From contig OZ245838.1 of assembly GCA_965228735.1 (NCBI GenBank), forward strand, positions 4,608,001-4,672,000: DNA of 64,000 nt, read 5' to 3'. The position numbers and the translations under genes are program-made. How positions within the stretch are numbered: position 1 is the stretch's first letter; every line of letters starts with the position of its first letter. This DNA comes from Planctomycetota bacterium. Lineage in GTDB: Bacteria > Planctomycetota > UBA1135 > UBA2386. This document shows positions 452-49,358 of the stretch, one piece after another. The notes beneath the pieces were generated by a model that ran no database searches, was not told the origin of the DNA, and was given only the letters and a program-made list of their open reading frames with translations.

Positions 452-475
452 GGTGCCAAGGACCCGCGCCGTGCG

Positions 476-1639: not shown

Positions 1640-1675
1640 GGCGCTGCCCCCCTCTCGCGCACACTCCCTTCGGCC

Positions 1676-2689: not shown

Positions 2690-2720
2690 TCCGAGGCTGC
2701 GCGTCGGCTAGCGTTTTGGA

Positions 2721-13385: not shown

Positions 13386-13665
13386 GCGGCCGGTCGTGAG
13401 CTGCCAGCGGTAGTCTGGCACGTTCTCGGCGCACGGCCAGCCGATTGTACGAATGGTTCTCTTCTCGAGCACGGGAGACTTGGAGCCGACCTTGCAACAG
13501 TCGAGACGGCAGGGCGTCGGCATCCGTTCGGATGCGTGATCCGCTGATGGCATCGGTGCCTGCCGGCGGCGACCGGAGCGTTTTGGCTGGACTGGGTATC
13601 GTGACCGCTATTGAATCCGGATGGGCTTCGAGTGCCTCGTGGCCGAGGTTGCCGCAAGCCACCAC

Positions 13666-29414: not shown

Positions 29415-30242
29415 ATGAGCGTCATTCCGGATATTCCCGCCATGGTGGCTGACCCACTTCCGGAGGTCGTGCTGACTGGCGTGCGCATTCACGCGATCGA
29501 CCAGCCACGGTGCGTTGCCCGTGTCATGGAGAGCCTCGACGCCGAGCGGGGTGGATGGATCGCGACGGCGAACCTCGACCATCTGCGCCGGTTGCGAAGC
29601 GACGCCGAGTTCCGCCGCGTCTACGACGACGCGGCGCTCGTCGTCGCCGATGGCATGCCGTTGGTTTGGGCGGCGAGACTCCAGGGCACGCCGCTACCGG
29701 AGCGCGTGGCAGGGTCCGATCTGATCCACAGTCTGTCGGCCGCTGCAGCAGAACGAGGGCGTCGTATCTTCCTGGTCGGCGGAGACCCTGGTACGGCGGA
29801 AGCCGCCGCGGCCAAGTTGGCGGCCGACAATCCGGGCCTGCAGGTCGCCGGTACCGACTGTCCGCCGTTCGGTTTCGAGCGTGATCCGGACCAGATGGCC
29901 GACCTGCGGCGCAAGCTGGCCGCGAGCGGCGCCGACCTCGTTTTCGTTGGGCTGGGCTCGCCCAAACAGGAGTTCCTGATCGACGCGATTCATGAAGTGC
30001 TGCCGGCCGCATGGTGGGTGGGCATCGGCATCAGTTTCAGCTTCGTCTGCGGTGAAGTCCGACGGGCCCCGGTCTGGGTACGGCGGGTCGGACTGGAATG
30101 GGCTCATCGCTTGCTGCAAGAACCCCGCCGACTCGGAGCGCGGTACCTCTGGCACGGGCCGCCCTTCGTCATGCGCCTGTTTGCGTCCGCGCTGTTCAGG
30201 CGCTTTCGGCCATCATCGGGCCGAACCCCGAGGAACCGGTAG
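29415..30242 (+). CDS. WecB/TagA/CpsF family glycosyltransferase
   Basis: TANLDH, VADGMP, ERVAGSDL, VGLGSPKQE, RAP.W....GLEW..RL..EP.RL..RY; start uncertain (29358/29415/29442). Confidence 0.92.
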   Translation: MSVIPDIPAMVADPLPEVVLTGVRIHAIDQPRCVARVMESLDAERGGWIATANLDHLRRLRSDAEFRRVYDDAALVVADGMPLVWAARLQGTPLPERVAGSDLIHSLSAAAAERGRRIFLVGGDPGTAEAAAAKLAADNPGLQVAGTDCPPFGFERDPDQMADLRRKLAASGADLVFVGLGSPKQEFLIDAIHEVLPAAWWVGIGISFSFVCGEVRRAPVWVRRVGLEWAHRLLQEPRRLGARYLWHGPPFVMRLFASALFRRFRPSSGRTPRNR

Positions 30243-30351
30243 TCCGGACTGCGATGCGAATTCTCTGCAATCATCCTCGCGCAGGTCACTCGCCCCGGCG
30301 GCTTCGGCTGCAGGCGCGCTCTGCTCCACGTTCGGGCATGACAGCTCGGGG

Positions 30352-31260
30352 ATGGCAATCGTGACCCTTCCGACCTTCCTCGTGATCGGCGCCGAGAAGG
30401 CCGGGACCACCGCGCTGCACGCGGCTCTCGATCGCCATCCGCGGGTGTTCATGAGCAACCCGAAGGAACCCTCCTTCTTCCTCTCCGAGGATTCGCGTTA
30501 TCTCGAGCAGGATCTGATGGGGCAGCCCCACGGCGACATCCGGACCCTCGCGGAGTACGAGGCTCTCTTCGCGGCCGCCGCGCCGGGGCAGGCGATCGGA
30601 GAATCCTCGCCCTGCTACCTCTACAGCCCCGACGCCGCCCGCTTCATCAAGAGCCTGATCCCCGACGTGCGCATCGTCGTGATGCTGCGTGATCCGGCGG
30701 AGCGGGCTTTCTCGCAGTTCACGTTCAATCAGCAGCGTGGTTGGGAGCCGCTATCCAGGACCTTCCAGGAAGCGCTCGCGCTCGAGGACGAGAGGGTGCG
30801 GGCGAACTCGATGTGGGCGTTCCACTACGTCAATCGTGGCATGTACGCGCGTCAGCTCGCGCCATACGTGGAGACGTTCGGTGACCAATTGCGGGCCTGG
30901 GCCTACGACGAGTTCGTCAAGGATCCTGCGAAGGTGCTGGGCGAGATCCACGATTTCCTGGGCGTGGAACGTGTCGATCTGGAAGAGCCCGCCCAGAGGA
31001 AGAACGTCACCTCGCTGCCACGGCTCGGGATCATCCGCCAGTTGCTCGATCGCCCGAATCCCGTGAAGGCCCTGGTCGGCCGTCTGATTCCGACGCACTT
31101 TCGGCGAGCCATGGGCGCGAGACTGCGGCAGTGGAACTCCCGCCGCCCGGAGCGCGACGACAGTTCGATCGCGTCGCTGAGGCCACGCTTCGTGGACGAC
31201 ATCGAGGCGCTGGCGTCCGGGTTGCTACCTGGAGCGCGGCGGTGGTTGGAGCGCGACTGA
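30352..31260 (+). CDS. Sulfotransferase
   Basis: IGAEKAGTT (5'-PSB), KEP.FF, GESSP.YL, LRDPAERAFS (3'-PB); ATG 30352. Confidence 0.9.
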   Translation: MAIVTLPTFLVIGAEKAGTTALHAALDRHPRVFMSNPKEPSFFLSEDSRYLEQDLMGQPHGDIRTLAEYEALFAAAAPGQAIGESSPCYLYSPDAARFIKSLIPDVRIVVMLRDPAERAFSQFTFNQQRGWEPLSRTFQEALALEDERVRANSMWAFHYVNRGMYARQLAPYVETFGDQLRAWAYDEFVKDPAKVLGEIHDFLGVERVDLEEPAQRKNVTSLPRLGIIRQLLDRPNPVKALVGRLIPTHFRRAMGARLRQWNSRRPERDDSSIASLRPRFVDDIEALASGLLPGARRWLERD

Positions 31261-31264
31261 GCCG

Positions 31265-34141
31265 TTACGCGGAGCGTTCGTGACCCGCAGTCTCTTCGCG
31301 GATGGCGGCCGCGAGGAGTGCGGCGTGGTCGAGCATGGTGTTGTGGTTCCCGGGTACCCACTCGACGCGCAAAGTACGGAAGCTCTTGCCCCAGCCGTTG
31401 TCTGGATCCATGACCCGGACGCCCGAGCCGTTGACCGACGTCGCTCTCGTGCCGGGGCCCAGCCAGACCTTCCGTTCGTCTCGGGGGCGGAAGAGCAGAA
31501 CGGGGATATCCAGACTCGGCGGCGAGAACGCGGCCGCGGCAACCTTGAATGCGTCTCGAATCCGGATCGAGCGGATCTGGCTCGGTGTGAGTCTCTCGGC
31601 GGGCTCTCGGTTGGCCGGGTTGCTCGGCGAAGCGTCGTCGTTCCGCCCCAGGCTGTGGCGGGCCTTCGTCAGCACTGCCTTGGAGATGCCACCCTCGTGC
31701 AGCAGCCGGCGGATCTGGAACATCCGGCGTTGCCAACCCTGCAGACGGCTCGTGGGGTGGCGGGTGTCGATGAGAAACAGCCCGGAAACGGTTTCGCCGG
31801 CGTCAATGAGTTGTTGCGCCATTGCCATCGCTATCAACCCGCCTCCGGAGTAGCCGCCGAGGTGATACGGCCCGTTGGGTTTCACCTGGCGGATCTCGCG
31901 GAGGAAGTCGCGAGCGGCGTCCTCGATCGTCTCGTGTGGCCCGTCATCTCCGAGAACGCCGCGGTACTGCAGCCCGAACACCGGCCGGTCCTCGAACTCG
32001 CGTGCGAGCCGCGCGAGCGTGACGACGTTGCCGTTGCGGCCCCCGACGACGAACAACGCGTGCGTCAGGTCCGGTTCCTGGGCTGCGGCCGCGTTGATCG
32101 GAACGACGAACCGATGCTCACGCTCCGAGGCTCCGGTGAGACGTGCTCGCACGAATCGGGCCAGGCTCCGGATCGACCCGGCTTCGAACAGCGTCGAGAT
32201 CGGCAACTCGAGCCCGGTGTGATCCAAGATTCTGGCGAAGACGCCGACCGCGATCAGCGAGTGCCCGCCGGCTTCGACGAAGTCGATGTCCGCATCGACG
32301 GGGCGGCCCAGGGCGTCCCGGAACGCCGCCGCGATCACCGTCTCGAGTTCGTCCAGATGCTGAACGCCGTTCGTTGACGGCGTTGCGGGGGAGTCGCGCG
32401 CGCTGTCGCGGTCCGCGAGCAGTGCGGCTGGGACGCTCAGCTCGAAGGACCGGTCGAGCGCACCGCCGTGCCTGCTGGTTGCGGATCTGCCCGACGTCGG
32501 CTTGGAGGCCGCGCTCTTCGGTGATCGGGTGGCGGGTTCGTTCGTGTCGGGCGTGACCTCGCCAGCCCGGGAAGCGTCCATCTCGAGCGTTCCGTGTTCT
32601 GCGATCGTTGCACCCGGCGCGATGGACCGCAGGAAGTCGAGTGCGGGCTCATTGCGATCGGTCTCTTTGTACTCGAGACCGACCTTGCCGAGACCTCGAT
32701 CGCGGGCGATGTCACCGAGCCGCTGCAGCATCCGGTGCTCGACTCCCCGTCCGAGCGCGCGGCAACTCAGCAAGAACGTCGGAGCGACAACGGCATCCCC
32801 GTTCACCCGGTAGATGACCAGGCCGACGATGCCGTACTCACCGAATCGGTCGCTGGCACCGACGAGGAACCCGCGATCTCCGGAGGCCAGATCGGACTCG
32901 AGCTCGTCGACTTTCCGCCGCCGAACGGAGAGGTGGAACTGGTTCGTGCGCAGTGTCAGTTCCGATGCGCGATCCATCCGCTCCGAGTCGATGTCGTGGA
33001 ACGTCAACCGCAGCTCCAGGTTGGCCAGGAACTCGCCGAGCGACGGTGCCGTATCGCGGTTCGCCTCGCGCGACAGATGGGCGCGGTAATACTCGACGCG
33101 GCTGCCGGAGGCCGCATCGTTGCGTAGATCGAACGCCCAATGGTGATCGCAGAATCGCACCATGTCGGCGTCGTTGTCCGGAAACCTCGTGACCGTCACG
33201 CCGGGGCAGTTGGCTTCGACCTCGGCACACTCGACCGGGTTGTCGTCGACGAAGATGAAGCTGTCCGTCCCGAGGCTGAGCTTCTCCCCGATCTCCCGGA
33301 TGTTTTCGGATTTCGGTCGCCAGTTGACCGCGGCGATGGTGACCGAGTCGCGCGGCAGGACCATGTCGTCGCGCTCTGCCCAGACACGCTCGACGTCCTC
33401 GGCAGAGTTCTTGGAGCACAGACCGATGACGACTCCGGACTCGGCCTGCGTGACGAGAAGGCGGTGCAGGGCGAGGTGGCCCTCGGTCAGTTCGATTCCC
33501 GTCGGCCCGACCTCGCCGCAGACGCCACGCCACAGGGTGTTGTCGCAATCGACGATGATGGCCTTGTGCGTTGGCTTGGTCCGCCGGTGCACTGCTCGAG
33601 CGAGTGCGGTGGCCCAGGCCGCATAGCCCGCCGGGGTGAACGGCATGGCACCGATCTTGTCACTCGCCGGGTCGTCGAACCTGGGCGTGGGGTAGGCGGC
33701 CTTGACCTCGTCTTCGACGATCAGGGTCACGTTCGGACTCTGGTCGATCGAGGCGCGCGCCCGTTCGACGATCGAGCCCCATTCGGCAGTGCTCTGACCG
33801 GTGCCGCGGCAGAGCCCCAGAATTGTTGGCGACGGCTGACGGGCCGCGGTCGCGATCAACTCGACAATCTGATCGGGGCCCGAGTCCTGCCAATCCGAGG
33901 GGCGGACGAGCATGGCGTGCAGTCGGTCCTCGGCGTCAGGCCGGGCTGCGGACGCGAGCAGGGTCTGGAACACCTGCCCGAACCCGTCTTCCTCGACTGC
34001 CCAGGGCATGCCGAGAGCCGTCGCCCAATGGGCGAGCAGTTCGCGGATCGGTTGCACCGAGAAGGTGCCACCGACGACGACGGTGAGTTGCTGCGGAGAC
34101 GACAAGATGGGCGAATTCAGGAGCTGGCCGACTATCGGCAA
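31265..34141 (-). CDS. FkbH-like (HAD-IIIC) glyceryl transferase fused to a carrier domain and a thioesterase
   Basis: VDCDNTLW.G, SKN, NWRPKS, FVDDNP.EC, RTNQF, DRFGEYG, LLSCRALGRGVE; carrier DFVEAGGHSL; TE GGYSGGG and VPGNH. Confidence 0.88.
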   Translation of the reverse strand: MPIVGQLLNSPILSSPQQLTVVVGGTFSVQPIRELLAHWATALGMPWAVEEDGFGQVFQTLLASAARPDAEDRLHAMLVRPSDWQDSGPDQIVELIATAARQPSPTILGLCRGTGQSTAEWGSIVERARASIDQSPNVTLIVEDEVKAAYPTPRFDDPASDKIGAMPFTPAGYAAWATALARAVHRRTKPTHKAIIVDCDNTLWRGVCGEVGPTGIELTEGHLALHRLLVTQAESGVVIGLCSKNSAEDVERVWAERDDMVLPRDSVTIAAVNWRPKSENIREIGEKLSLGTDSFIFVDDNPVECAEVEANCPGVTVTRFPDNDADMVRFCDHHWAFDLRNDAASGSRVEYYRAHLSREANRDTAPSLGEFLANLELRLTFHDIDSERMDRASELTLRTNQFHLSVRRRKVDELESDLASGDRGFLVGASDRFGEYGIVGLVIYRVNGDAVVAPTFLLSCRALGRGVEHRMLQRLGDIARDRGLGKVGLEYKETDRNEPALDFLRSIAPGATIAEHGTLEMDASRAGEVTPDTNEPATRSPKSAASKPTSGRSATSRHGGALDRSFELSVPAALLADRDSARDSPATPSTNGVQHLDELETVIAAAFRDALGRPVDADIDFVEAGGHSLIAVGVFARILDHTGLELPISTLFEAGSIRSLARFVRARLTGASEREHRFVVPINAAAAQEPDLTHALFVVGGRNGNVVTLARLAREFEDRPVFGLQYRGVLGDDGPHETIEDAARDFLREIRQVKPNGPYHLGGYSGGGLIAMAMAQQLIDAGETVSGLFLIDTRHPTSRLQGWQRRMFQIRRLLHEGGISKAVLTKARHSLGRNDDASPSNPANREPAERLTPSQIRSIRIRDAFKVAAAAFSPPSLDIPVLLFRPRDERKVWLGPGTRATSVNGSGVRVMDPDNGWGKSFRTLRVEWVPGNHNTMLDHAALLAAAIREETAGHERSA

Positions 34142-34354
34142 CGCATAACTGGGAATTGACTTACGAAGGGTGGTCAGGCTCCCGGGAGGGCCGGGAGCCG
34201 AGCGTGAACGTGGCTTCGCAACGGGGGACCGAGCCGCGGCTCGCGGAGTCGGGCAACGCGGTCCGAGCCGTTGGTCCCGGTGCGAAGGGCGGAATGCGCC
34301 CCGTGACCAGCAGGTCCCGTCGGCGGAACCGCCAGGCCCCGCGGGGGCGAGGAA

Positions 34355-35239
34355 CTAACGGCCCGGCAGCTGGTTTGTTGCAGCAAGAATCGTCGCGGCG
34401 GTTCGTGCGGCCCGAGTACCGGTGTGAGTGTTCGTGATCTTCTGCAGGGCCGCCCGAGCCGTATCGACGGTGCCGCCGGCAGCCGATTCCGTGAGAGCAT
34501 CCCGGAGCGCCTTCTCGGCCGTGATCTCGGCGACGAGTTCCGGCGCCCTCGTCCGCTGCAACAATCCTGCAGCTCTCGCTGCCAGGGTCGAGTTGGCGCC
34601 CGTTCTTTCGATGGCCTCGCAAAGCTCGGTCGCACGAGCGTATGCACCACTCGCCATTGCCTTCTCGGCGAGTCTCATGAGTCGGGCCAGGTCGCGGGCT
34701 CGATCGGCCGTGGTCGCGCGTTGCTCGGCGACGTAGTTCCGCACGGCGGCCATGTCGTCGAGTGGATTGCCCTCCATCACGACCGTGCCTTCGGGGGAGA
34801 GCAGGATGTACGACGGAACCGACTGTCGGTTCATCTCGAAGGGGTAGCCGTTCGTGAAGATCGCCGAGGTCCCGAACCACCCGCGTTCGAGCCCGAGGCG
34901 GAGAACGTCGTCGAGCTCGTGGCGTCGCTCGATCAGGATCGCCTGGAAGTGGTCGTCGAACTGACGCTGCAGATCGAGTGACGCCGGCACGGACGTCGCA
35001 ATGCAATGCCCTCAATTCTTGCCCCAGATCAGGATGAGCACGGGCACGCCGCGCAGGTCTTCGAGCGACCCTACTCCTCGGTCGTGGAACATCGGGCGAG
35101 AGAACTCGTGGCTCAGCCGATCGCCGACGCGGATGGCGCCGGGGCGGTGCGGTTGCCCGCGCGTCTTCTTGTACCAGTAGATTCCCGCGGCAGCCGCCAG
35201 GACGAGAACGGCGACCAGGATGATGCTCGGCGTCTTCAT
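34355..35239 (-). CDS. Probable selenoprotein: membrane-anchored thioredoxin-like (TlpA/redoxin) protein with UxxC motif
   Basis: ORFs 35012-35239 and 34355-34990 are in the same frame and separated only by TGA at 35014-35012; read-through gives LRGVPVLILIWGKN-U-GHC, a later VPSYILLSPEG.V motif and an N-terminal TM; 294 aa in total. Confidence 0.75.
34980..34997 (-). promoter_or_regulatory. Candidate bacterial SECIS element
   Basis: Minus-strand GACG-U-CC-GUGCC-GG-CGUC hairpin starting at +15 after the in-frame UGA; bulged U and a loop beginning with GU. Confidence 0.55.
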
Positions 35240-36303
35240 CGTCGGAGTAACTCACGGAAGCGGCACACCTCGGCCCGGAAGCCGGCTGAGTCGTGTTCGT
35301 CGTCTCGAACGACGGTGCGTTGCATTGTGATGGCGATGCGAGTCAGGTTGATCGGATTCGTATCGCGCTGGTTCATGCCGCCGTCACGAAAACCGGCGTA
35401 GCGGTAACCAGCCGCTCGAACGGCGGCCTCGACCCGCGCGTCCGAGTCGCCATTGGGGTAACACAGGCCGGAGACCGGCTTGTGGGTCCACTCTGCGAGC
35501 TGAGCAGCAGATTGGCGCAGCTCATGATCGAGGTCCGCGTCGTTCAGCAGCGGCAGAATCGGATGCGTCACCGAGTGCGAGCCGATCTCGTGGCCGCCGC
35601 GATCGAGCTCGATTACCTGCTCGGGAGTCATGGGGCGGCACAACGTGGCGTCGAAGGTGCCGCTGGCGACCGCCTGGGCCCGTTCGACGAACTCCATTCG
35701 CCGGGCTCCGGGGAGCGCCTTGAGGCTGTCGGTCCACGCCTGGCCGGTTGGAGGCTGCCCGTCGGCGGTAGCGGCCGAGGATTCACGCCGGACGGACCGA
35801 AGCAATTCGACCTGATCCTCGCGCGACAGCCGATCCCAGACGAATGCCGCCCGGTCGAACCACAACGCCTGGCCCGATTTCACGAAGTCGCTCGTGACGT
35901 AGAAGGTCCCTCGAACACCGTGCTTCTCGAGGATCGGAGCGGCTAGCGCGTGGTTGTCCCAATAGCCGTCGTCGAAGCTGATGGCGAGCAAGGGGCGACT
36001 CGCGGGACGGCCGTTCGCGAGTTCGTCCATGGCTTCTACGACCGGCAGAACCTCACAGTGCGACGCGAGCCACTCGACCTGGGCGTCGAACGAGTTCTGC
36101 GGAATCACCAGGCTCGCGAGCGGGTAATCGCGGCAATCCTCGAGCGGCAGCACGCGGTGATACATGAGGATCGTCAATCCGCGGCGCATTCGCCGTTCCA
36201 TCAGGCGCATCAATCCGGTCAGTTCGGCGACGCGGTCGATCCCCGAACGCAAGCGATGCTTGAAGGTGCGGGCGAGGCCAGGGGACTCGACGGCGGACGT
36301 CAT
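35236..36303 (-). CDS. Polysaccharide deacetylase (CE4/NodB-like)
   Basis: ILMYHRV, ISFDDGY.DN, EIGSHSVTHPIL, CYPNG; ATG 36303. Confidence 0.9.
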   Translation of the reverse strand: MTSAVESPGLARTFKHRLRSGIDRVAELTGLMRLMERRMRRGLTILMYHRVLPLEDCRDYPLASLVIPQNSFDAQVEWLASHCEVLPVVEAMDELANGRPASRPLLAISFDDGYWDNHALAAPILEKHGVRGTFYVTSDFVKSGQALWFDRAAFVWDRLSREDQVELLRSVRRESSAATADGQPPTGQAWTDSLKALPGARRMEFVERAQAVASGTFDATLCRPMTPEQVIELDRGGHEIGSHSVTHPILPLLNDADLDHELRQSAAQLAEWTHKPVSGLCYPNGDSDARVEAAVRAAGYRYAGFRDGGMNQRDTNPINLTRIAITMQRTVVRDDEHDSAGFRAEVCRFRELLRR

Positions 36304-37229
36304 CACTTTGCCAAGGCCTCGGTCCGAGTCCGCTGTGGTGATCGCAGGATTGGCGCCCGGAGTCGGTCGCGAAAGCGGTTGTCGCCGCGCCCGGTGAGTC
36401 GTTTCACCAACGACCGTACGCCAACGACGGTGACTTCCGCGCAGTCCGCGAACGCCGCGGCGACGACGCCGAAGTGCTTGCGCAGGTAGTAGAACCGACT
36501 CTCGTAGTAGTGCTTCGAGATGTCTTGCCCGTGCATCGTCTCGTTGGTCTTGGCGGTGCTCGCTCCTGCGAGGTGCGAGGCCACGGCTGCGCCCGTGACC
36601 CACAGCTCGTGACCGGCCTCGCACACGCGGCGACAGAGATCGGTCTCCTCGAAGTACAGGAAGAACCGTGGATCGAATCCGCCGAGCGCGACCATGACGT
36701 CACGACGCGCGAGCAGCACTGCACCGCACAGCCAGTCGGTCCGACGTGGGGCGGACCCCGGTGGGACCGGCTCACTGGGTGGGATCCTCCACCCCGCGGC
36801 GGCGGCAATGACGCGCCATGGAGTCGGCAAGGGATGGATCTTCTGGGCGGAACCGTTCGGATTGAGGATCGCCGGCGCCACGATGGCGGCCTGCGGGTGC
36901 TGCTCCAAGTGCTCCTGCAAGATCGCGAGTGCCGGCAAGGGCAGGACGGCGTCGGGGTTCAGGAACAGCACGTAGTCACCCTCGGCCATCGCCAGGCCGA
37001 TGTTGCACCCTCGACCGAAGCCGACGTTCTCCTTGCTCGCCACGACATCGACCCAGGGGAATCGCGATTCGACGGAGCCGGCCGTGTCGTCCGTACTCGC
37101 GTTGTCCACGACGATGACGCGCACCGTGCCTGCAGCTTGCCCGTCCGCGAGCGCCTCGAGCGCCGCGTCGACCGTGCCGGCTGAGTTGTACGTCACGATG
37201 ACGACCGTGATCGGGGCGCTGCGACTCAT
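36303..37229 (-). CDS. Glycosyltransferase family 2 (WbbL-like)
   Basis: VVIVTYNS, VVDNASTD, N.GFGRGCN, FLNPD, GGFD.RFFLYFEETDLC; ATG 37229. Confidence 0.92.
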   Translation of the reverse strand: MSRSAPITVVIVTYNSAGTVDAALEALADGQAAGTVRVIVVDNASTDDTAGSVESRFPWVDVVASKENVGFGRGCNIGLAMAEGDYVLFLNPDAVLPLPALAILQEHLEQHPQAAIVAPAILNPNGSAQKIHPLPTPWRVIAAAAGWRIPPSEPVPPGSAPRRTDWLCGAVLLARRDVMVALGGFDPRFFLYFEETDLCRRVCEAGHELWVTGAAVASHLAGASTAKTNETMHGQDISKHYYESRFYYLRKHFGVVAAAFADCAEVTVVGVRSLVKRLTGRGDNRFRDRLRAPILRSPQRTRTEALAK

Positions 37230-38245
37230 GACCGACCGAACAGTTTCTCGGGGAGCGTGGGGTAGGCCCCGCCGGTCTTGTAGCGGAAGAACGTCATCGA
37301 CTCCGGTGCCGCGATACGGGTGAGCTGGTAGGGGTCGGAGGCCGACGTGATCTGACGTCGGGCGCCCGACGCAACGGCAGAACTCAGCCCGGCGGCCTCG
37401 ACGAGATTCCGGCCGTCGGCGTCCGACCGACCATAGGGGAACGAGAAGTGAGCGGGTTCGTAGCCGAGCTCGCGACGGAACTCGTCGCAGCACGTGGTGA
37501 CCTCGTGGTCTCGCACCGCCGAATCCGCGTTCTGCAGGTCGCAGTGATCGGAGGTGTGTACGCCCAGCTCCATCAGGTCGTAGTCGTCGCGCAGTCGTCG
37601 AGCCTCGTCCCAGTTCATCGTCAGCCTGGGTCCGGTCTCCCGTGGCTGCAGCTGTTCCGTGAGGGTGGCCAGCAGGGCCTGACGCTGATCGAGGTTTCCG
37701 AGGATCATCGCCGAGTTGATCTCGGCACGGGCGCTTCGCTCGACGGGCCCGTGGTCGAGGCGAATCGGCGTATTGCGACCAGGCAGCGCCAGGTCCTCGC
37801 GGCTGCGGGTCCGGAAGATCGTGTGGACGCGGTCGACCCACTGATTCTCGCCGCGGCCCACGTATCCCGTACAGAGGTAGAGCAACGCTGGCAGTCCGAG
37901 CTCCGCGAGAATCGGCGCGGCGACCTCCAGGTTGTCGAGGTAACCATCGTCGAGAGTGACGACGACCGTTCCTGCTGGTGGTTCTTCGCCCTTCCGGATC
38001 GTTGCGACGAGGTCGCTGAGACCGATCACGCGACGGTGTCGCGCGAGGAACGTCATCTGTCGACGGAACAAGTTGGCGTCGATCGTGTTGGAAGGATCGT
38101 GCCAGCTACGCCGCTCCGGCGTGGAGACGCTGTGATACATCAGGATCACGGCGCCGACCGGCGACGCGGCGCGAACGTAGATCCAGGACAGGCCGCTCAG
38201 GTAGAGCCCCGCGTGCAGACCTTGCAAGACTCGTTGCTTCAACAC
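37226..38245 (-). CDS. Polysaccharide deacetylase (CE4/NodB-like)
   Basis: ILMYHSV, VTLDDGYLDN, GVHT..H, FSFPYG. Confidence 0.9.
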   Translation of the reverse strand: MLKQRVLQGLHAGLYLSGLSWIYVRAASPVGAVILMYHSVSTPERRSWHDPSNTIDANLFRRQMTFLARHRRVIGLSDLVATIRKGEEPPAGTVVVTLDDGYLDNLEVAAPILAELGLPALLYLCTGYVGRGENQWVDRVHTIFRTRSREDLALPGRNTPIRLDHGPVERSARAEINSAMILGNLDQRQALLATLTEQLQPRETGPRLTMNWDEARRLRDDYDLMELGVHTSDHCDLQNADSAVRDHEVTTCCDEFRRELGYEPAHFSFPYGRSDADGRNLVEAAGLSSAVASGARRQITSASDPYQLTRIAAPESMTFFRYKTGGAYPTLPEKLFGRS

Positions 38246-38302: not shown

Positions 38303-39025
38303 TCAGAAGTTCCCCACGGGGAAGGCGATCGGCAGCGGCAGGTTCTGGCGGATGTACTTGTCGACCCAGACGTTGATCTTGTCGATCATGTTGTTCGGGA
38401 CGTAGATCACGTCGTGCGGTTGGAGGAACACTGGTGTGCCGTCCACCCAGTTGTCGAGTCCGGCATCGAACTGCCAGACCTGGTGCCTTCGTTCGACTGG
38501 GAGCCAGCGGATCAGCATCGCTTCTTCGAGGAGTGCGGATCCCTTGACCGGCCCTCCGGCGCGTCCGATGGCCTCCAGGAAGGTAAGCTCACCGCGCCCG
38601 AACGCGACGACGCCCGGTATGTTGACCTCGCCGATCACCGTGACTTCGCGCGGCGCCGGGTCGATGATGTCGACGGACACGGTGCCCGCGCCCACCTCGC
38701 TCTGGTTGGCGTAGGCTTCGCTGACCTTGGCGCCGAGCGCCCCGACGGATAGTCCCACCAGCTGGAGCTCGCCCACGAACGTGAACGTCGCGCGGCCGTC
38801 GTCGCGCACGATGGTTTGGTGGTCCCACTCCGGCTTCTGCGGGAACCGCACACCGATCGTATCACCCGCGACGACGAACGCCTGTGGGGAGAGCGTCGCG
38901 TTGATGTCGGGAGCAACGGCACGCAAGGCCGGGAACGAGCAGCCACTGGCCAGAGTCAACGCCAGGAGTCCGAGAACTCGGCCCCCTGCTCGACGTGCCA
39001 ACGAATCACGGTTGCTCTCACGCAT
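38303..39025 (-). CDS. wza: Polysaccharide export lipoprotein (Wza/Poly_export-SLBB)
   Basis: Lipobox LASGC; GD.I.V, VR.DG, VIGEV..PG, EAI..AGG, LQP.DVIYVP. Confidence 0.85.
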   Translation of the reverse strand: MRESNRDSLARRAGGRVLGLLALTLASGCSFPALRAVAPDINATLSPQAFVVAGDTIGVRFPQKPEWDHQTIVRDDGRATFTFVGELQLVGLSVGALGAKVSEAYANQSEVGAGTVSVDIIDPAPREVTVIGEVNIPGVVAFGRGELTFLEAIGRAGGPVKGSALLEEAMLIRWLPVERRHQVWQFDAGLDNWVDGTPVFLQPHDVIYVPNNMIDKINVWVDKYIRQNLPLPIAFPVGNF

Positions 39026-39086: not shown

Positions 39087-39992
39087 CTACGAATCGGCGC
39101 GGGGAGTCGTTCGCGCTTCTCTGCCCGCGAGCCGTTCTGCCACCGTCCGGAGCTGACAAAGGTCGCGCGGCCGCGCCAGGCGGGAAACGCGGACGGAGCG
39201 CGCCAGTGCCACGCAGCTCTGCATCAGCGATTCGGGGCCGCTGACGCCGCTGAGAAGTTCGGGGAAGTACGAGTGCCGCAGCAACGCGACGCCCGCGGTG
39301 AGTCCGCGGAGCGGCGTCGGTTCGACGCTTCCGGTCGAACTCAGAACGTAGACGTGGCGCAGCCGGACCGGGCTGTCGGCACAGGATTCCGCGGGTACCC
39401 TGGCGACGCGCTTCTCGGGGCGGTCGCCGGGGCCGATGGGCCGGTTGTCCGGTACGACCTCACGGGTGGCCACCGGTCCGGGTGCGACCATTGGCTCGGT
39501 AGCCGTGGGGTCGATTGCCGCGATGTCGTCCGTCACGAACCGGCAGCCGAATTCGACCATGAGCCTGGCCAGCGTCGACTTGCCGACCCCGGAATCGCCA
39601 GCGAACGCGATGCCGGCCATCGTCGCGGGCTGCGCGACGCAGCTCGCGTGCAGGCAGAAGAATCCGCGTTGTTGCAGGAGCAGCCCCATGGCGGGGCCGG
39701 CGATGAACTGTGCGAGGTCCTGACTCGGCTCGACGTCTACGCCGGATGGCGTCACGGTGATCGATCGCCCGTCACGGACGCGCAGCGCGCCGACCCCGGC
39801 GCGCACGATCGTCGAGTCCTGCGGCGACAGCCGGTGCCAGTCGCCGCTGTGATCGGGCGGCGCAGCCCCGTCGGCAGGGAGTGACGAGGTTTCGATCGTG
39901 ACGTCCGTTGCGTCACGCGAGGATTCCGGCCGCAGGCTGGGGAGCGGTACTTCCGAACGGATGGACAGTCCGTATGCGCGGTATGTCGGCAC
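39087..39992 (-). CDS. HPr-kinase-like lasso peptide kinase
   Basis: Y.AYGL.I.SE..LP start, LHASCV, Walker A GDSGVGKST, VTDD; immediately downstream of the lasso precursor. Confidence 0.82.
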   Translation of the reverse strand: MPTYRAYGLSIRSEVPLPSLRPESSRDATDVTIETSSLPADGAAPPDHSGDWHRLSPQDSTIVRAGVGALRVRDGRSITVTPSGVDVEPSQDLAQFIAGPAMGLLLQQRGFFCLHASCVAQPATMAGIAFAGDSGVGKSTLARLMVEFGCRFVTDDIAAIDPTATEPMVAPGPVATREVVPDNRPIGPGDRPEKRVARVPAESCADSPVRLRHVYVLSSTGSVEPTPLRGLTAGVALLRHSYFPELLSGVSGPESLMQSCVALARSVRVSRLARPRDLCQLRTVAERLAGREARTTPRADS

Positions 39993-40066
39993 GGACGAAC
40001 TGCCTCAACGACCGAGCGCGCTCGGTTGAACTCGAACGGTCCTGGGCAGAGCCAGCTGGCCGAGCG

Positions 40067-40237
40067 TTAGCTCGAGCCCGGGTTCGCCCACGGGTTCCAA
40101 CCCGATCCCTGGCCGTTGAAGAATTCGCCCCAGCGGCCGCCAATCCATTGCGTGAGTTCTTCGACTCGGCCTTGGACTTCGATGGATGGCGTTTCGTAGG
40201 TGCGGTCGGTGTCGTTGGAGTGAGTCTGATCGTTCAT
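40067..40237 (-). CDS. Lasso peptide precursor (56 aa): MNDQTHSNDTDRTYETPSIEVQGRVEELTQ | WIGGRWGEFFNGQGSGWNPWANPGSS
   Basis: Leader YETPSI (YxxPxL-type), G, Thr at -2; acceptor Glu at core position 8; lies between cyclase and kinase. Confidence 0.88.
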   Translation of the reverse strand: MNDQTHSNDTDRTYETPSIEVQGRVEELTQWIGGRWGEFFNGQGSGWNPWANPGSS

Positions 40238-40343
40238 CAGAGAGCTAACCAGGGTAGAAGGGTCTGGCGCAGGGGCCATCAGAAGATACCCCAGCAACGG
40301 GGTGTGGGAAGGGGGGTTGCGCCTTTTCTTCGAGCGCCTCGGC

Positions 40344-42209
40344 TCAGCGCGAGCGGACCCAGAATCCGAGCAAGACGCCGAGCCAGAGCGCCATTCCGTC
40401 GGACTCCGCGATGCCACCGGGGGGTAGCGCCAGGATTCGGCGGAGTGCCCCGAGGTCCACGAACTCATCGAGGCCCGGAGAGTTGCGGAGTAGCGAATCG
40501 ATACGATCTCGGTCTGCGACCAGGAATCCCTGCTCGAACTGGTCACCCCAATGTGACTTGTGAACGCGAGTCCGGATTGCCTCGGGAACGATCCCGCGCA
40601 AGGCCCGGCGCTGGATGGCTCGATCGTAGCCGCCATGGAGTCGTTGCTCGGGTGGCAGCCCGTAGCAGAATTCGATCAGCCGGTGGTCGAAGTAGGGGTG
40701 CCGGTGATCGAGCCCGAACGCCGCGCTCGCCTTGTCGTGGACCTCGAGCGAGTGCGCGATCAGCGGGGTCGTCAGGGCGCGGTGGTGGGCCTCGCGCAAG
40801 CTTCGGGGCGGGCGGTTCGCCTCGACGACCGCCTGGCGATCTCGCATTCGGGCGGTCCAGTCGACTTCACGCGCAAAGCCGGGCGCGATGCTCGATGGCA
40901 CGGCCCCGAGTTCTCGTCGCCAGGAGCGGGTCACGGAACGGACCACCGGCGCGAGTCCGAAGTGCCAGAAGAACCGCTTCGTCGACTGCCGAAACACGCC
41001 GGCGAGTTGCCGGCACTCGCGCACGGCGCGAACGATGCGGCCGCGGCGCACGAGTTCGGCGAGCCAATCCGTGCCGTGACTGACGGTCGTGTCGCCATCG
41101 ACGCCGTCGATGACGGCTCGGATCCCGAGTTCGCGGGCGCGCCGGGCGAGTGACCAATAGACGTAGAGGTTGGGCGCGCAGAACGGTTCTTCGACCCGTT
41201 CGAGCATGGCGTCCACCTCGCGCAAGGGGCTCGTGCTGCTCGCCGAGACGAACTCTGCCGGCCACGGCTCGTTCGGTTCGTCGTCGCCGTTCGCCGCGAG
41301 GACCAGGTCGATGTACTGCCGCTCGTCGATCCGCGGGAAGTCGGGGAACAGCGCCGACAGCGTCGTGATCGGATGCGCTCCCCAGGCTTTCCGATTCGCG
41401 TGCGCGAGCCGGACCAGGCCTGACGAATCCAGGCCGCCGCTCAGCAGGATCGCCGTCGGCTCGTCGCGGTGCAGGCGGCAGCGGAGCGCTTCCGTGAGCG
41501 TGTCGCGGAAGCGCTCGGCATAGCTCTGGTCATTGGCCAGCTCGACGCGGTGATCCGGGTCGAGCGCCCAGTAGCGGCGCAGGGACTCCCCGCTCTCGCG
41601 GACGGTCAGGGAATGGCCGGGTGGCAGCCGTCGAACGTGCTCGTAGAACGTGCGGTCGTGGTCGGCGAATACCTGGCCGAGGTAGTCCGCGATCTTGCCG
41701 TTGTCGAGATCACGCGGCACGTCGGCGGCGTCGAGCAGCGGGCCGATCTCCGATGCGAAGACGAAACGCTCGGGCGCGAGGTGGTAGTAGAACGGGCGCG
41801 TTCCGAGGCGGTCTCGCGCGCAGAACAGCTGACGCTCGAGGGATGACCAGATGGCAACCACGAAGTCACCGAACAGGTGCTCGGGGCAGCTCTCACCCCA
41901 GCGTTCATAGGCCCGCAAGACGATGTCGGCGGGGGTCGCATCGGCCGGGGCGTCGAGTTCGGCTGCGAGGTCCGAGAGGTTGTCGATGCGGGCCGCGATC
42001 GCGGCGATTCGACCGTTGCGCTGCGCGATCGCGGCCTCGGACCCGGTCGGGGCGAGCACGCCGAACGCCGCGCCGGCCGTGTTCGTCGCGAGGCGAGCTG
42101 CGCCGCGATGCGCCATCCGACCGGCCATTGCGGCAATTCGGTCCCGGTCGAGGGGGCGTTCGTCCCGTTGCCAGGCTCCAACGAGCCCGCTGCTGATGAT
42201 CCCGATCAT
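40344..42209 (-). CDS. Lasso peptide cyclase (asparagine synthetase-like, C protein)
   Basis: RIDN..DL, GDF..AIW, RDRLGTRP, LSGGLDSS, G.DGD, HPYFD.RL.EF; no N-terminal catalytic Cys; start ATG 42209 inferred. Confidence 0.88.
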   Translation of the reverse strand: MIGIISSGLVGAWQRDERPLDRDRIAAMAGRMAHRGAARLATNTAGAAFGVLAPTGSEAAIAQRNGRIAAIAARIDNLSDLAAELDAPADATPADIVLRAYERWGESCPEHLFGDFVVAIWSSLERQLFCARDRLGTRPFYYHLAPERFVFASEIGPLLDAADVPRDLDNGKIADYLGQVFADHDRTFYEHVRRLPPGHSLTVRESGESLRRYWALDPDHRVELANDQSYAERFRDTLTEALRCRLHRDEPTAILLSGGLDSSGLVRLAHANRKAWGAHPITTLSALFPDFPRIDERQYIDLVLAANGDDEPNEPWPAEFVSASSTSPLREVDAMLERVEEPFCAPNLYVYWSLARRARELGIRAVIDGVDGDTTVSHGTDWLAELVRRGRIVRAVRECRQLAGVFRQSTKRFFWHFGLAPVVRSVTRSWRRELGAVPSSIAPGFAREVDWTARMRDRQAVVEANRPPRSLREAHHRALTTPLIAHSLEVHDKASAAFGLDHRHPYFDHRLIEFCYGLPPEQRLHGGYDRAIQRRALRGIVPEAIRTRVHKSHWGDQFEQGFLVADRDRIDSLLRNSPGLDEFVDLGALRRILALPPGGIAESDGMALWLGVLLGFWVRSR

Positions 42210-42323
42210 GGAAACGTCGCGCCCCGGAGGACAGCGGCCGGAGCATACTGGCCGATGTTGCGTTACGCTTCCCGGGCCTTGCCGAGGGAAGTTCGGCACA
42301 TGTGGGTCGACCCGACGCAGCGC

Positions 42324-42623
42324 ATGACAGGAGACATCGGACTCAACTCGGTCGTTCGAGCAAACATTCGTCAGCTTTCGGTCGAGATCGACGGCGAGAC
42401 CGTCCTGCTCAACTTCGACGACGGATTCTACTACTCGATCAACTCGGTCGGAGCGCGGATCTGGACGCTGGTCCAGGACGCGACCCGAGTGTGCGACGTG
42501 AAGGCGGCGTTGCTTTCGGAGTTCGACGTCGACTCGGCCAGATGCGAGGCCGACCTGCTGGCGCTGCTCGCCGACCTCGAGGCGAAGAACCTCATCGAGG
42601 TACTCGATGCGGATCCTGCGTAG
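42324..42623 (+). CDS. PqqD-family RiPP recognition element (lasso B1)
   Basis: 99 aa; EIDGETVLL...G.YY.IN.VGARIW..., EFDV....CE.DL..LL..L....LI. Confidence 0.9.
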   Translation: MTGDIGLNSVVRANIRQLSVEIDGETVLLNFDDGFYYSINSVGARIWTLVQDATRVCDVKAALLSEFDVDSARCEADLLALLADLEAKNLIEVLDADPA

Positions 42624-43053
42624 GTTCTGGCGGCTGTCGTTCTCCGAGAAGCTGATGCTCGGCAAGGCGTGGGGGTTGCTCGCCGTCGTGCGAAGCAGCA
42701 TGTGGATCGCGGGGTTCGCGCGGACCAAGCGCTGGGTCGATCGTCGACACGCGCGCGTGGAACGACTCGTGCGGTCGCGCCAGGAGCCGCATCGGATCGC
42801 CCGAATGGTCGAGATCGCGAGTCACTTCTTCCCTGGCGGTCGGCATTGCCTGAGTCGGGCGATGGTGCTCGAGGTGCTGCTGCGCCGCCGCGGCTACGAC
42901 GCCAAACTGGAGATCGGTGTCGCGTTGGCGGATGCACCCGTCCAGAGCGGGTCACGGCTCTCGGCGCACGCCTGGGTCACGCACGGTGACCGGATCCTTC
43001 TCGGTGGAGCCGAGGCTCCCGACTTCAAGCGGTTGACGCGGTCGGGTCGGTGA
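42607..43053 (+). CDS. Lasso peptide leader peptidase (B2, transglutaminase-like)
   Basis: HCLSRA (Cys), L.IGV, AHAWV (His); overlaps the RRE gene. Confidence 0.9.
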   Translation: MRILRRFWRLSFSEKLMLGKAWGLLAVVRSSMWIAGFARTKRWVDRRHARVERLVRSRQEPHRIARMVEIASHFFPGGRHCLSRAMVLEVLLRRRGYDAKLEIGVALADAPVQSGSRLSAHAWVTHGDRILLGGAEAPDFKRLTRSGR

Positions 43054-44051
43054 CTCGTTCGACGGACAGCTTCTCCGCGGCGGACGCGCCGCCTCGCATC
43101 CGCGTCACCGCGCTGCAGAAGCGCTACCCGCGGAACCGCAATCTGCTGCGGTTCCTGCGCGCGCCGCATCGCCGCGACTACACGATGGCGCTCCGTGGGG
43201 TCGATCTCGTGATCCCGCAGGGCGGCATCTACGCGCTCCTCGGCCCCAACGGCGCTGGCAAGACGACGCTACTGAAAGCGCTCTCGGGTCTGCTCCTGGC
43301 CAACTCTGGCACGATCGAGATCGATGGCATCGACCTGACGAACGAGCCGCGGAAGTTGCGCAATCGCGTCGCGCTGGCCGTGTGCGACGAACGTTCGTTC
43401 TACTGGCGCATCAGCGGCCGCGAGAACCTGCGGTTCTACGCGACGCTCAACGGGCTCGAGGGCGCGGCGCGCGATCGCCGGATCGATGAATGCCTCGCGA
43501 TGGTGCGGTTGGGGTCGGCTGGCGATCGGCGCTACATGGAGTACTCGGCGGGCATGCGGCAGAGCCTCGCGCTGGCGCGCGGGCTGTTGCTCGATCCGCC
43601 GATCCTCCTCATGGACGAGCCAACGCGGTCGCTCGACCCCGAGGCCACGGCGGCGGTCCACGATGTGATCACCGGGTTGCAGGCTGCCGATCCGAGCCGC
43701 GTGTTCTTCTACTCGACCCATGACCTGGCCGAGGCGGAATCGATCTCGAGTGATGTCATCGTGCTGCGGGGCGGGCGCATCGTGATGCAGCGGAGCCTCG
43801 CTCGCGAGGCCGGCTACGTCTACCGCGTGCGCACCCATCCCGAGCTGCCCGAGAGATTGCTCGACGACATCGACGGGCTGCAGGTGCTGGGCAGCTCGGA
43901 AGCCGGCACGGTCGTCGAGTTCGCCGAGTTCCGGACGCTCGATGCGGTGCTCGCGCGGCTCGCCGAGCGTCGTTTGCAGGTGCGCGAGGTCGCAGAGCAG
44001 CGGTCGCGGCTCGGCGAACTGTATCGCTCGAGCGCGGAGGCGCAGCGATGA
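43050..44051 (+). CDS. ABC exporter ATP-binding protein
   Basis: GPNGAGKT, YSAGMRQ signature, LLMDEP, STH. Confidence 0.92.
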   Translation: MTRSTDSFSAADAPPRIRVTALQKRYPRNRNLLRFLRAPHRRDYTMALRGVDLVIPQGGIYALLGPNGAGKTTLLKALSGLLLANSGTIEIDGIDLTNEPRKLRNRVALAVCDERSFYWRISGRENLRFYATLNGLEGAARDRRIDECLAMVRLGSAGDRRYMEYSAGMRQSLALARGLLLDPPILLMDEPTRSLDPEATAAVHDVITGLQAADPSRVFFYSTHDLAEAESISSDVIVLRGGRIVMQRSLAREAGYVYRVRTHPELPERLLDDIDGLQVLGSSEAGTVVEFAEFRTLDAVLARLAERRLQVREVAEQRSRLGELYRSSAEAQR

Positions 44052-44863
44052 GTCTGCCACGCACGGCTGTCGCGTTCCTGCGGCGCGAGTTCCTCGAAGA
44101 GGCGTCCTACCCGCTCAAGGTCGTGTTCGGGTTCGGCGCGGCGATCGTGAGTATCGGGTTCCTCGTAATCTTCGCCGACTTCGTCGGCGCCACGATGGCC
44201 GGCAGCGGTGAAGGGCGAATGGCACACGGCTACCTGCCGTTCGCGCTCGTCGGACTGAGCTTCCACACGCTGCTCGATACCGCTTTGCGCGAACTGAGCT
44301 CGCGGATTCGCCGGGCGCAGATGCAGGGCACGTTCGAGGCGCTGCTCGCGACGAGCACGCCGCTGCCCGTGCTCATGCTCGCGCTGCCGCTCTACCCGTT
44401 GCTGCGGACGTGCTCGCGATTCGTGTTGCTGCTCTTGTTCGGGTGGCTCGTCCTGGATGTGCCGCTCAGCTTCGGCAACTGGCCCGTCGTGCTCGTGGCG
44501 TTCGGGCTTGCCGTGACCGTCTTCACGGCGATCGGTCTCGTGTTCGCCGGCCTCACGGTCGTGTTCAAGCAGACCGAGCCGCTGATCGCCGTCTTCAACG
44601 CGTCGTGTTTCTTCCTCGGTGGCGTGATCGTGCCGTCGGGTGAGTTGCCCGCGGTGCTGCAATGGGTCGGCGTGCTGTTGCCGATCACCCCGGCGCTCGA
44701 GGCGTTCCGGATCGCTGCGATCGATGGTGGCGACTTCGCGGCTGCAGGGCCGGTGCTCGGACAACTGGCCGTCTTCGCGGTCGTCCTCGTGCCGTTCAGC
44801 GTCGTCGTGTTCCGCTGGTCGATTCGGCAGGCGCTTCGCGACGGCAGCCTCGGGCACTACTGA
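44048..44863 (+). CDS. ABC-2 type exporter permease
   Basis: About 6 TM segments, GTFE.LL..S.P, GG...P...LP..L; translationally coupled to the ATPase. Confidence 0.88.
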   Translation: MSLPRTAVAFLRREFLEEASYPLKVVFGFGAAIVSIGFLVIFADFVGATMAGSGEGRMAHGYLPFALVGLSFHTLLDTALRELSSRIRRAQMQGTFEALLATSTPLPVLMLALPLYPLLRTCSRFVLLLLFGWLVLDVPLSFGNWPVVLVAFGLAVTVFTAIGLVFAGLTVVFKQTEPLIAVFNASCFFLGGVIVPSGELPAVLQWVGVLLPITPALEAFRIAAIDGGDFAAAGPVLGQLAVFAVVLVPFSVVVFRWSIRQALRDGSLGHY

Positions 44864-48263: not shown

Positions 48264-49358
48264 TTGAACGATCATCTACGCGCGATCCTGAAAGGAGTCT
48301 TCGGTGACGGCTCGGCCTCCCAGGCGGACGAGTTTCGGGCGGCCTGCAGCCGTGTACGGCCCGCGGACTGGGGCGGTTTGTTGCCGGAGCTGGAGAGTCA
48401 CCGCCTCGCGCCCCTGGTCGGCTACACCGCCCGCCGGCTCGATCTCGAGTCCGCCATTCCGTCGGCGCCACGGGAGCGGTTGCGGGAGTCGTATCGCGCG
48501 GCCTTTTTGTTTGCCGAACTACAGTCTCGAGCTCTGCGCGACATTCTGGTGGCCCTGCGCGCTGGCGGGGTCGAGCCGATCATCTTCAAGGGCCTCGTGC
48601 TGAGCGGCGCGTTCTATCCCGATCGAGGGGCCCGGCCGATGGTCGACGTGGACTTCCTGGTTGCGGTTTCCGAGCTGAAGCGCACGGTCCGCGCGCTGCG
48701 AAAGCTGGGCTACACGCGACGCATTCGCGATGGTGTCGTGGGGCCGAATGGGTTCGTCAACCCGTTCGGTGTCGTCATTGATCTGCATTGGCAATTCGAC
48801 TTGTTTGCCCCGGACCAGCATGCCGAGATCACTGAGGACCGCGCGATCCGAGAACTCGGAGAGCATCCGATTCGCTCGTGGGAGCCCAACGCGATGCTCG
48901 TCCATCTCGTGTACCACCTCGTCGGACATCGCGAAGGCACCGGGATCAACCTCGGCTGGCTCGTCGACATCGGGTTCCTCGTCCGTTCCGATGGCGATCG
49001 CATGAACGTCGACGCGATTCGTCGGCTCGCGCCCACCGATGCCTGCTTCGCGATGGTCTGGCGCATTCTCGCGTTCCTCGAACGCGACTGCGGTGTCGAA
49101 CTTCCGGCGCACCTCGCCCAGCAGGCGGCGCTTTACGAACCGCTCTCCCTGCCGCGCATCCTGCGCGAGAGCCGGCTTCGCCCCTGGGGCCTGCCCGGTC
49201 TCGTCGGTGCCGGACGGTTCCTGTTCCGGCGCGTGTTCGGCGGGTCCACCAAGCGTCGCAATCCGACCTTGACCGACCTCGCGCTCGCGATCACCGACCG
49301 GATCCAGGACCGCCGCGCGGACAGCCGCGCCATCGCGACCGTGCGAACGCAGTCTTGA
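48264..49358 (+). CDS. Nucleotidyltransferase family protein (NTP_transf_5 type)
   Basis: FKG..L...YP..G.R.M.DVDFLV, IDLHW, W..DI motifs; TTG start. Confidence 0.82.
   Translation: MNDHLRAILKGVFGDGSASQADEFRAACSRVRPADWGGLLPELESHRLAPLVGYTARRLDLESAIPSAPRERLRESYRAAFLFAELQSRALRDILVALRAGGVEPIIFKGLVLSGAFYPDRGARPMVDVDFLVAVSELKRTVRALRKLGYTRRIRDGVVGPNGFVNPFGVVIDLHWQFDLFAPDQHAEITEDRAIRELGEHPIRSWEPNAMLVHLVYHLVGHREGTGINLGWLVDIGFLVRSDGDRMNVDAIRRLAPTDACFAMVWRILAFLERDCGVELPAHLAQQAALYEPLSLPRILRESRLRPWGLPGLVGAGRFLFRRVFGGSTKRRNPTLTDLALAITDRIQDRRADSRAIATVRTQS

Follow-up and report, generated by a model that had tools for sequence, protein, structure and literature searches.

A conserved in-frame TGA predicts a membrane-anchored selenocysteine redoxin within a polysaccharide and lasso gene cluster in Planctomycetota

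Introduction

An in-frame TGA on the minus strand of the window (the whole 64,000-nucleotide stretch of Planctomycetota DNA analysed here) separates two called open reading frames which, if joined, would make a redoxin with selenocysteine (Sec) at its attacking position. We asked if this TGA is read as Sec, if the hairpin behind it is a selenocysteine insertion element (SECIS), and what such a protein could do among polysaccharide and lasso peptide genes. The features of the gene are as follows.

34355..35239, minus strand: whole gene, 294 aa with TGA as Sec; anchor helix, TlpA-type thioredoxin domain and helical tail
35171..35227, minus strand: hydrophobic N-terminal helix (residues 5-23), likely an uncleaved anchor; same feature in the orthologue of genome G304
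34706..35143, minus strand: TlpA/ResA/DsbE-like thioredoxin domain (residues 33-178) with invariant Pro142; fold match to 3eyt
35012..35014, minus strand: TGA in frame, predicted to encode Sec76 at the first position of U-G-H-C; homologues have TGA or Cys here
35003..35005, minus strand: Cys79, predicted resolving cysteine; nearly invariant column in alignment A2
34980..34997, minus strand: SECIS hairpin, 6-bp stem GACGUC/GGCGUC, loop CGUGCC, +15 to +32 after UGA; supported by covariation and by the Val codon GTG
34358..34705, minus strand: six-helix C-terminal domain (residues 179-294), from model and alignment; typical family members have about 55 residues more

Results

The reading frame across the TGA

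The gene runs from an ATG at 35239 to a TAG ending at 34355 and holds 294 codons, of which one, at residue 76, is an internal TGA in the context WGKN-U-GHC; the original prediction of one 294-aa frame with TGA at the first-Cys position of a TlpA-type site was thus borne out, coordinates included. Translation table 11 cuts the gene into a 75-aa ORF (35012-35239) and a 211-aa ORF (34355-34990), and public collections store exactly these pieces as separate proteins. Contigs from runs X4, X5 and X7 were identical to the window gene, but this DNA may itself derive from those runs; two further studies (runs X14 and X18) held a strain about 95% identical in which TGA and hairpin were unchanged (9 differences over the 221 nt of 34900-35120, none in either element). 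Codon changes in the X14 strain were 18 synonymous versus 14 non-synonymous and fell on both sides of the TGA, counted over the differences listed inside the gene, where the list gives 40 of the 47 in the stretch. The orthologue in G304, a genome of another genus, was 49% identical over 289 residues and read WGKN-U-THC, again with TGA. Among 53 distinct family proteins examined, one of which lacked the motif, the column held TGA in 36 of the 52 motif-bearing members, Cys in the other 16 and Trp in none; the Cys members were picked on purpose and the 36:16 ratio is therefore no frequency.

These data bear upon the view that the TGA is not read through, being a true stop (of a pseudogene, or between two small proteins), a sequencing error or a Trp codon. 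The databases do keep the halves apart and the hairpin by itself is not unusual; nevertheless, a sequencing error was rejected since the TGA stands in the independent X14 and X18 assemblies, a pseudogene was rejected from the TGA kept in the 49%-identical orthologue together with the 18:14 strain changes over both halves, and Trp was rejected because no homologue has Trp at the column and the genes adjoining the redoxin use TGA as their stop. We regard this view as extremely improbable; the window gene very likely encodes one 294-residue selenoprotein, as judged from comparative sequence data.

Selenocysteine machinery

The source genome (G000) encodes SelA (E 1e-109), SelB (337 bits versus a cut-off of 242), SelD and a tRNA-Sec with anticodon UCA, all four above curated cut-offs, so that the machinery whose presence was to be checked is complete; the SelD gene carries its own in-frame TGA. 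Across this Planctomycetota class, 317 of 339 genomes have SelA, as do all 104 of the high-quality ones, some of them about 2 Mb in size. The class seems to have a large selenoproteome that has received little study. With machinery, codon and hairpin taken together, Sec insertion at UGA76 is predicted with near certainty.

The hairpin downstream of the TGA

The hairpin had been proposed as an fdhF-like SECIS with a bulged U and a pentaloop. A hairpin does follow the UGA and a loop G does lie at +22, as proposed; the bulged U and pentaloop are not the conserved structure. In energy the window hairpin was unexceptional: it did not differ significantly from shuffled sequences (z -0.70 to +1.25), three registers lay within 1.2 kcal/mol of each other, and it was the weakest among 33 TGA genes (-8.3 kcal/mol). 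It agrees with the bSECIS model of PMC13188914, where Fig. 2A gives a loop of 3-9 nt, a stem of 4-16 bp, a G in the first two loop positions, a spacing of 16-37 nt and an MFE of -7.5 kcal/mol or lower; the window hairpin has a 6-nt loop, 6 bp, G second and a 20 nt spacing. Its energy is borderline: folding 28 nt gives -8.5 kcal/mol, and folding the 18-nt hairpin by itself gives -6.7 to -6.9. Rfam at gathering scores gave no matches over 33000-37000 of the window. The motif CGTGCC occurs at a similar distance after 79 of the 6,201 TGA-x-x-Cys sites of the genome (69% GC).

Covariation was scored over 17 TGA genes that have the same spacing; L029, one codon shorter, and the two Cys genes did not enter. 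The hairpin scored 0.512 versus 0.144 for shuffled alignments (0/500 shuffles) and at most 0.274 for slid registers, relatedness among the sequences inflating such scores. CGTGCC was invariant in the 17 genes, inside a covarying stem of 8 pairs; the bulged-U register shares the lower pairs, and its upper pair holds in 8/17 genes, versus 13/17 and 17/17 for the pairs of the unbulged stem. The conserved fdhF-type bulged U with pentaloop was rejected on these family pairs, and in four genes of the f2 family the register is shifted by one base. Hairpins enclosing the loop Val codon averaged -11.3 kcal/mol in 33 TGA genes versus -8.1 in 16 Cys genes, a comparison of related sequences whose P value is overstated; the Val codon itself was GTG in 33/33 TGA genes versus 10/16 Cys genes. 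By covariation the SECIS is real, with a predicted unbulged 6-bp stem (including a U-G pair) and a CGUGCC hexaloop. The observation of a putative hidden selenoprotein is confirmed by the conservation of TGA and hairpin among homologues, and not by hairpin strength.

The family signature W-G-x-x-U-x-x-C-x-x-x-S/A-V-P is written in the very codons that form the SECIS. Because the stem covaries through the post-active-site codons and relaxes in Cys copies, the redoxin family offers a clean natural test of protein-RNA dual coding.

A class-wide redoxin family

Searched with the window protein, 25 of 61 related genomes (its own among them) gave matches, and a profile built on an alignment of 21 sequences (A2) matched 194 of the 339 class genomes (E 1e-40). 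Among the 150 A2 matches listed (70 further ones stand outside that list), a hand count gave 134 with TGA and 16 without, the place of the TGA being checked in fetched loci only; all 16 TGA-less matches were fetched and carry Cys at the Sec column. Cys copies lie in SelA-positive genomes in 15 of 16 cases, often beside a Sec copy, and 8-9 changes between TGA and Cys were counted on a quick tree. A sample of 301 genomes from across the phylum had more distant relatives, mostly with TGA, in 70. Homologues thus carry TGA or Cys at the predicted column.

Annotation captures little of this. The 150 protein-library hits listed, sorted by simple rules, comprised 76 post-TGA-like fragments, 39 CxxC proteins, 3 ending just before the Sec position and 32 others. 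Atlas clusters, queried with a Cys homologue and not with the window protein, were mostly from Planctomycetota. The window protein matched no Pfam or NCBIfam thioredoxin model; homologue L022 reached 27.3 bits versus a cut-off of 26.6 when scored with PF08534/PF00578, and P0011, a Cys member named by NCBI 'TlpA family protein disulfide reductase', fell below. No A2 member was seen at an NCBIfam cut-off (scores were at hand for four; the best E was 1e-9 or weaker for all 21). That this class-wide family has been overlooked by annotation is a solid conclusion, and with the family present in over half of the class genomes and mostly stored as post-TGA fragments, selenium use is undercounted in these bacteria.

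Several other genes were seen alongside. A tblastn of the window protein against its own genome gave no paralogue under E 0.4, and the profile was needed to find L042 (G000:C1:6179608-6180573, minus strand), a full-length family paralogue (hhalign 99.8%) that has lost both the active-site U and C and is a probable catalytically dead redoxin, judging by its sequence. About 30 family-length library hits also lacked the standard motif by a simple pattern test. The Sec copy of genome G040 (L059, G040:C1 about 2,268,100-2,269,200) appears frameshifted in mid-gene, perhaps by an assembly error. Elsewhere in G000 a tandem array (L055:6460-8863; G000:C1 about 204,460-206,860, plus strand) holds a Cys peroxiredoxin, a Sec peroxiredoxin (TFVU) and a Sec TlpA-plus-helical gene (ETWUGPC), and four further TlpA-like UxxC genes, with TGA at G000:C1 848558 (+), 6546711 (+), 3714212 (-) and 3976156 (-), share a different SECIS, with a GGUC loop encoded by H-E-R-S-L-V.

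The rare U-x-H-C branch

The window protein and its G304 orthologue joined at 100% on a long branch (1.98) with no settled place in the family on the quick tree. Both have a longer hydrophobic N-terminus followed by KK, have lost about 55 tail residues, and place a His directly ahead of the resolving Cys, which was seen in 2 of the 52 motif-bearing proteins. Of the 339 class genomes, two (G000 and G304) have the branch, and no further member was found in a phylum sample of 401 genomes (E 1e-35). A metagenome scan with the window protein gave 92 pattern hits, none confirmed; a scan with P0004 gave one 1.1-kb contig (L134) which, being nearly identical to the G304 locus, is not independent evidence. 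Two N-terminal fragments, P0119 and P0152, share 52-53% identity with the window protein, stop immediately ahead of the Sec position and carry an anchor like its own; from their sequences they are probably further members of the branch on short contigs. A region search with P0119 returned itself only. His at this place in an archaeal thioredoxin is described as raising the potential by 66 mV, still far below DsbA (PMC4395160), and by analogy its effect here is probably modest.

Domain structure

AlphaFold2 on A2 gave a model (pLDDT 90.9) with a helix at 6-28, a thioredoxin domain and then helices to the C-terminus, which fits the original proposal of a membrane-anchored redoxin with a helical C-terminal extension. 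The best fold matches of the redoxin domain were of the DsbE/ResA/TlpA type (Foldseek E 1.5e-5), with 3eyt at a VIA-align Z of 16.6 and an rmsd of 2.1 A over 136 residues; W72, U76 and C79 are nearly invariant and P142 is invariant in A2. A fold search with the helical tail was uninformative (best Z 8.7, a common helical arrangement) and gave no significant TPR match.

Gene neighbourhood

The genes that bear upon the setting of the redoxin are these.

35236..36303, minus strand: polysaccharide deacetylase (PF01522), upstream; its TGA stop overlaps the redoxin ATG (ATGA, 35236-35239)
36303-37229, minus strand: GT2 glycosyltransferase, upstream in the same gene run
37226-38245, minus strand: second deacetylase, upstream in the same gene run
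38303-39025, minus strand: Wza-type export lipoprotein, upstream in the same gene run
31265..34141, minus strand: FkbH-ACP-thioesterase gene, downstream; its closest orthologue among 91 family genomes is that of G304
29992..31260, plus strand: sulfotransferase; its orthologue (66%) adjoins the redoxin in G304

The redoxin gene closes a run of overlapping genes with deacetylase, GT2 and deacetylase, and the Wza-type gene lies just before the run. About 44 kb around it hold Wzz, flippase, glycosyltransferase, sulfotransferase, amidotransferase, FkbH-ACP-thioesterase, DUF1839/ACP and lasso genes, and the GC content of the cluster is 62-69% versus 69.4% for the genome. In G304 the redoxin orthologue sits between orthologues of the sulfotransferase (66%) and DUF1839 (76%), with an ISL3 transposase two genes away; other G304 contigs hold orthologues of FkbH (53%), deacetylase (43%), GT2 (42%), Wza (38%) and flippase (35%), as well as of the lasso cyclase (53%) and ABC protein (61%). 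The FkbH half matched 4 of the 91 family genomes, G000, G304 (56%), G023 (38%) and G007 (32%), and the last two, with the more distant FkbH, gave no match to the rare redoxin branch.

Translational coupling to the deacetylase had been proposed from the 4-bp overlap; the overlap exists, but it is not conserved in G304, the only orthologue with context, where the redoxin is not coupled to a deacetylase and gene order differs from that of the window. A scan for sigma-70 promoters and terminators found nothing above chance. The proposed glycan/lasso operon setting likewise stood in part: the rare branch lies in the cluster in two genomes, of one family; whereas, typical family members lie outside glycan operons. 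Among 57 neighbours of 13 typical loci (71 of 113 ORFs were scanned, with family genes, a syntenic duplicate and doubtful frames left out) there were no exopolysaccharide genes, bar one PMT_2/TPR protein and a sulfatase at one locus. The cluster link is therefore specific to the rare branch.

The lasso genes (39087-44863 and 48264-49358 of the window) encode a cyclase, an HprK-like kinase, an ABC exporter and an NTP_transf_5 nucleotidyltransferase, with a B2 protease on the opposite strand (42607-43053); B1 was not found among the few ORFs tested. The precursor has 56 aa (40067-40237) with a Trp-rich core and no cysteine, and the lasso peptide was rejected as a redox substrate on that ground. 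At 191-5231 the window holds ACP, acyl-CoA dehydrogenase, DUF1839 and GH2-like genes, and in G304 (L053:4672-6478) DUF1839 comes after an amino acid-[acyl-carrier-protein] ligase; these ACP/DUF1839 genes and the FkbH-ACP-thioesterase may add acyl or aminoacyl groups to the polysaccharide. A lactate racemase (LarA)-like gene (13621-14919) also lies within the cluster.

Discussion

We propose that the gene encodes a membrane-anchored, probably outward-facing Sec thiol-disulfide oxidoreductase that services cysteine-containing proteins of the exopolysaccharide cluster, a reading to which we give a probability of about 55%. Sec-tRNA would be brought to UGA76 by SelB sitting on the CGUGCC hairpin; in the absence of selenium, translation would end there and yield just the 75-aa anchor stub. 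A domain of predicted TlpA/ResA-type fold would be tethered to the inner membrane by the N-terminal helix. There the selenolate of Sec76 would attack a disulfide in the substrate, to be resolved by Cys79; His78 may shift the site somewhat towards isomerase behaviour. From TlpA/ResA/StoA chemistry, the oxidised site would be recharged by the DsbD-type protein of the genome, which has one DsbD membrane domain (at G000:4263914). The helical tail presumably binds a partner, which is likely encoded by the cluster; the lipoprotein at 6611-8920, with eight further cysteines, is a speculative candidate.

The side of the membrane on which the domain lies bears directly on this scheme. An inverted arrangement, with an N-out anchor and a cytoplasmic domain that keeps cysteine-rich tailoring enzymes (deacetylases, GT2, FkbH, amidotransferase) reduced, agrees with the positive-inside rule, there being 5 basic residues after the window helix versus 1 before it, and 3 versus 2 in G304; the overlapping upstream enzymes, moreover, look cytoplasmic, each with 4-5 cysteines and, in the adjacent deacetylases and GT2, no signal peptide evident by eye. 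It is opposed by the TlpA/ResA/DsbE fold, whose matches are mostly extracytoplasmic proteins, by the signal-peptide-like N-termini with which typical family members start (by eye), and by the related fragment P0119, in which basic residues are more numerous ahead of the helix than behind it. We consider the inverted arrangement unlikely; from the family N-termini, and against the charge bias, the catalytic domain probably lies on the periplasmic side. Less likely still is a selenium peroxidase of peroxiredoxin or GPx type that clears envelope peroxides rather than exchanging protein disulfides. Peroxiredoxins and GPx do appear among the fold matches (Z about 14), and the Atlas clusters of the Cys homologue carry AhpC-TSA besides Redoxin; against this, disulfide interchange proteins are the best fold matches, the site is W-G-x-x-U-x-x-C with a downstream Pro and not the peroxiredoxin T-x-x-U of Table 1 in PMC13188914, and the Sec-peroxiredoxin motif P-x-x-x-T-x-x-U given there is absent from the window protein.

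What the rare branch does for the cluster is less firmly placed, and a glycan role is plausible. The strongest form of such a role, in which a Sec oxidoreductase was recruited from the class-wide family, re-anchored, shortened, retuned (U-x-H-C) and dedicated to the exopolysaccharide/lasso pathway, we regard as less likely than not; if true, surface-glycan production or decoration would depend on selenium supply. Less probable to us than the proposed reading, and still to be taken seriously, is that the redoxin is a real selenoprotein and a general envelope oxidoreductase which travels on the same island and has no dedicated polysaccharide or lasso role. Co-transfer on an island would account equally well for the cluster link, and the varied, non-glycan neighbourhoods of typical members, the differing neighbours in G000 and G304 and the transposase near the G304 copy are all in keeping with it; further, no second close family member in G000 retains an active site (the 6179608 paralogue is motif-less), so the window gene could stand in. 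Against a mere passenger, G304 also keeps a typical Sec copy, and although gene order has changed and the two proteins now share 49% identity, the branch has not left the cluster. Should the rare branch indeed act for the cluster, it would bring a selenoenzyme into glycan biosynthesis, for which the literature searched gave no report.

Comparison with known systems

The kind of enzyme is already known, since TlpA-like UxxC selenoproteins of the cd02966, PF08534 and PF00578 types are catalogued in PMC13188914, whose review text as far as consulted does not mention Planctomycetes. These share with the present family the TlpA-type fold, Sec at the attacking position, a downstream bacterial SECIS and Cys homologues; the family adds a helical C-terminal domain and the W-G-x-x-U-x-x-C-x-x-x-S/A-V-P signature. 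Sec machinery and a few selenoprotein candidates are described for other planctomycetes (PMC4807772). BSepDB (PMC13326102) covers 16,621 Sec-using species, its main text, in the parts consulted, being without mention of Planctomycetes or TlpA, and the same holds for the main text of deep-Sep (PMC12013277). No paper on the redoxin family, nor any that places a selenoprotein among exopolysaccharide genes, came up in our literature search; members may be filed under general redoxin names in BSepDB and in the supplements of PMC13326102 and PMC4807772.

Two curated models describe redoxin selenoproteins of similar length, NF041054 (ResA-like, WAxxUGC) and NF041382 (VPGUxxT type 1), and some family members match them weakly (best E 1e-5 and 1e-6; about 15-25 bits versus cut-offs of 300 and 350). 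Membership of NF041054 was rejected, the motif being UxxC and not UGC and the score at most 24.8 bits among the members scored versus 300; NF041382 was rejected because VPGUxxT is absent and 21.6 bits, over the helical part only, compare with 350.

The E. coli fdhF SECIS, which has a bulged U, resembles that of the window in lying within the coding region and in having GU early in a small apical loop, and differs from that of the redoxin family, where no bulged U is conserved. E. coli YbbN/CnoX, which has a chaperone role, also places a helical domain after a thioredoxin domain (3qou, Foldseek E 3e-4); whereas, the whole proteins compare at a TM-score of 0.25, YbbN/CnoX has a classical Trx domain and no anchor, and the window tail has no significant TPR match.

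Closest in architecture are B. subtilis ResA/StoA, TlpA and DsbE/CcmG, which like the window protein combine one membrane anchor with an extended thioredoxin domain; they differ in having CxxC, no helical tail, and a location and function that have been tested, with identities to the window protein of 12-20%. The nearest precedent in function is StoA, described in PMC2665060 as an anchored ResA-like reductase needed to make spore cortex peptidoglycan; it shows that a protein of this kind can be dedicated to a glycan layer.
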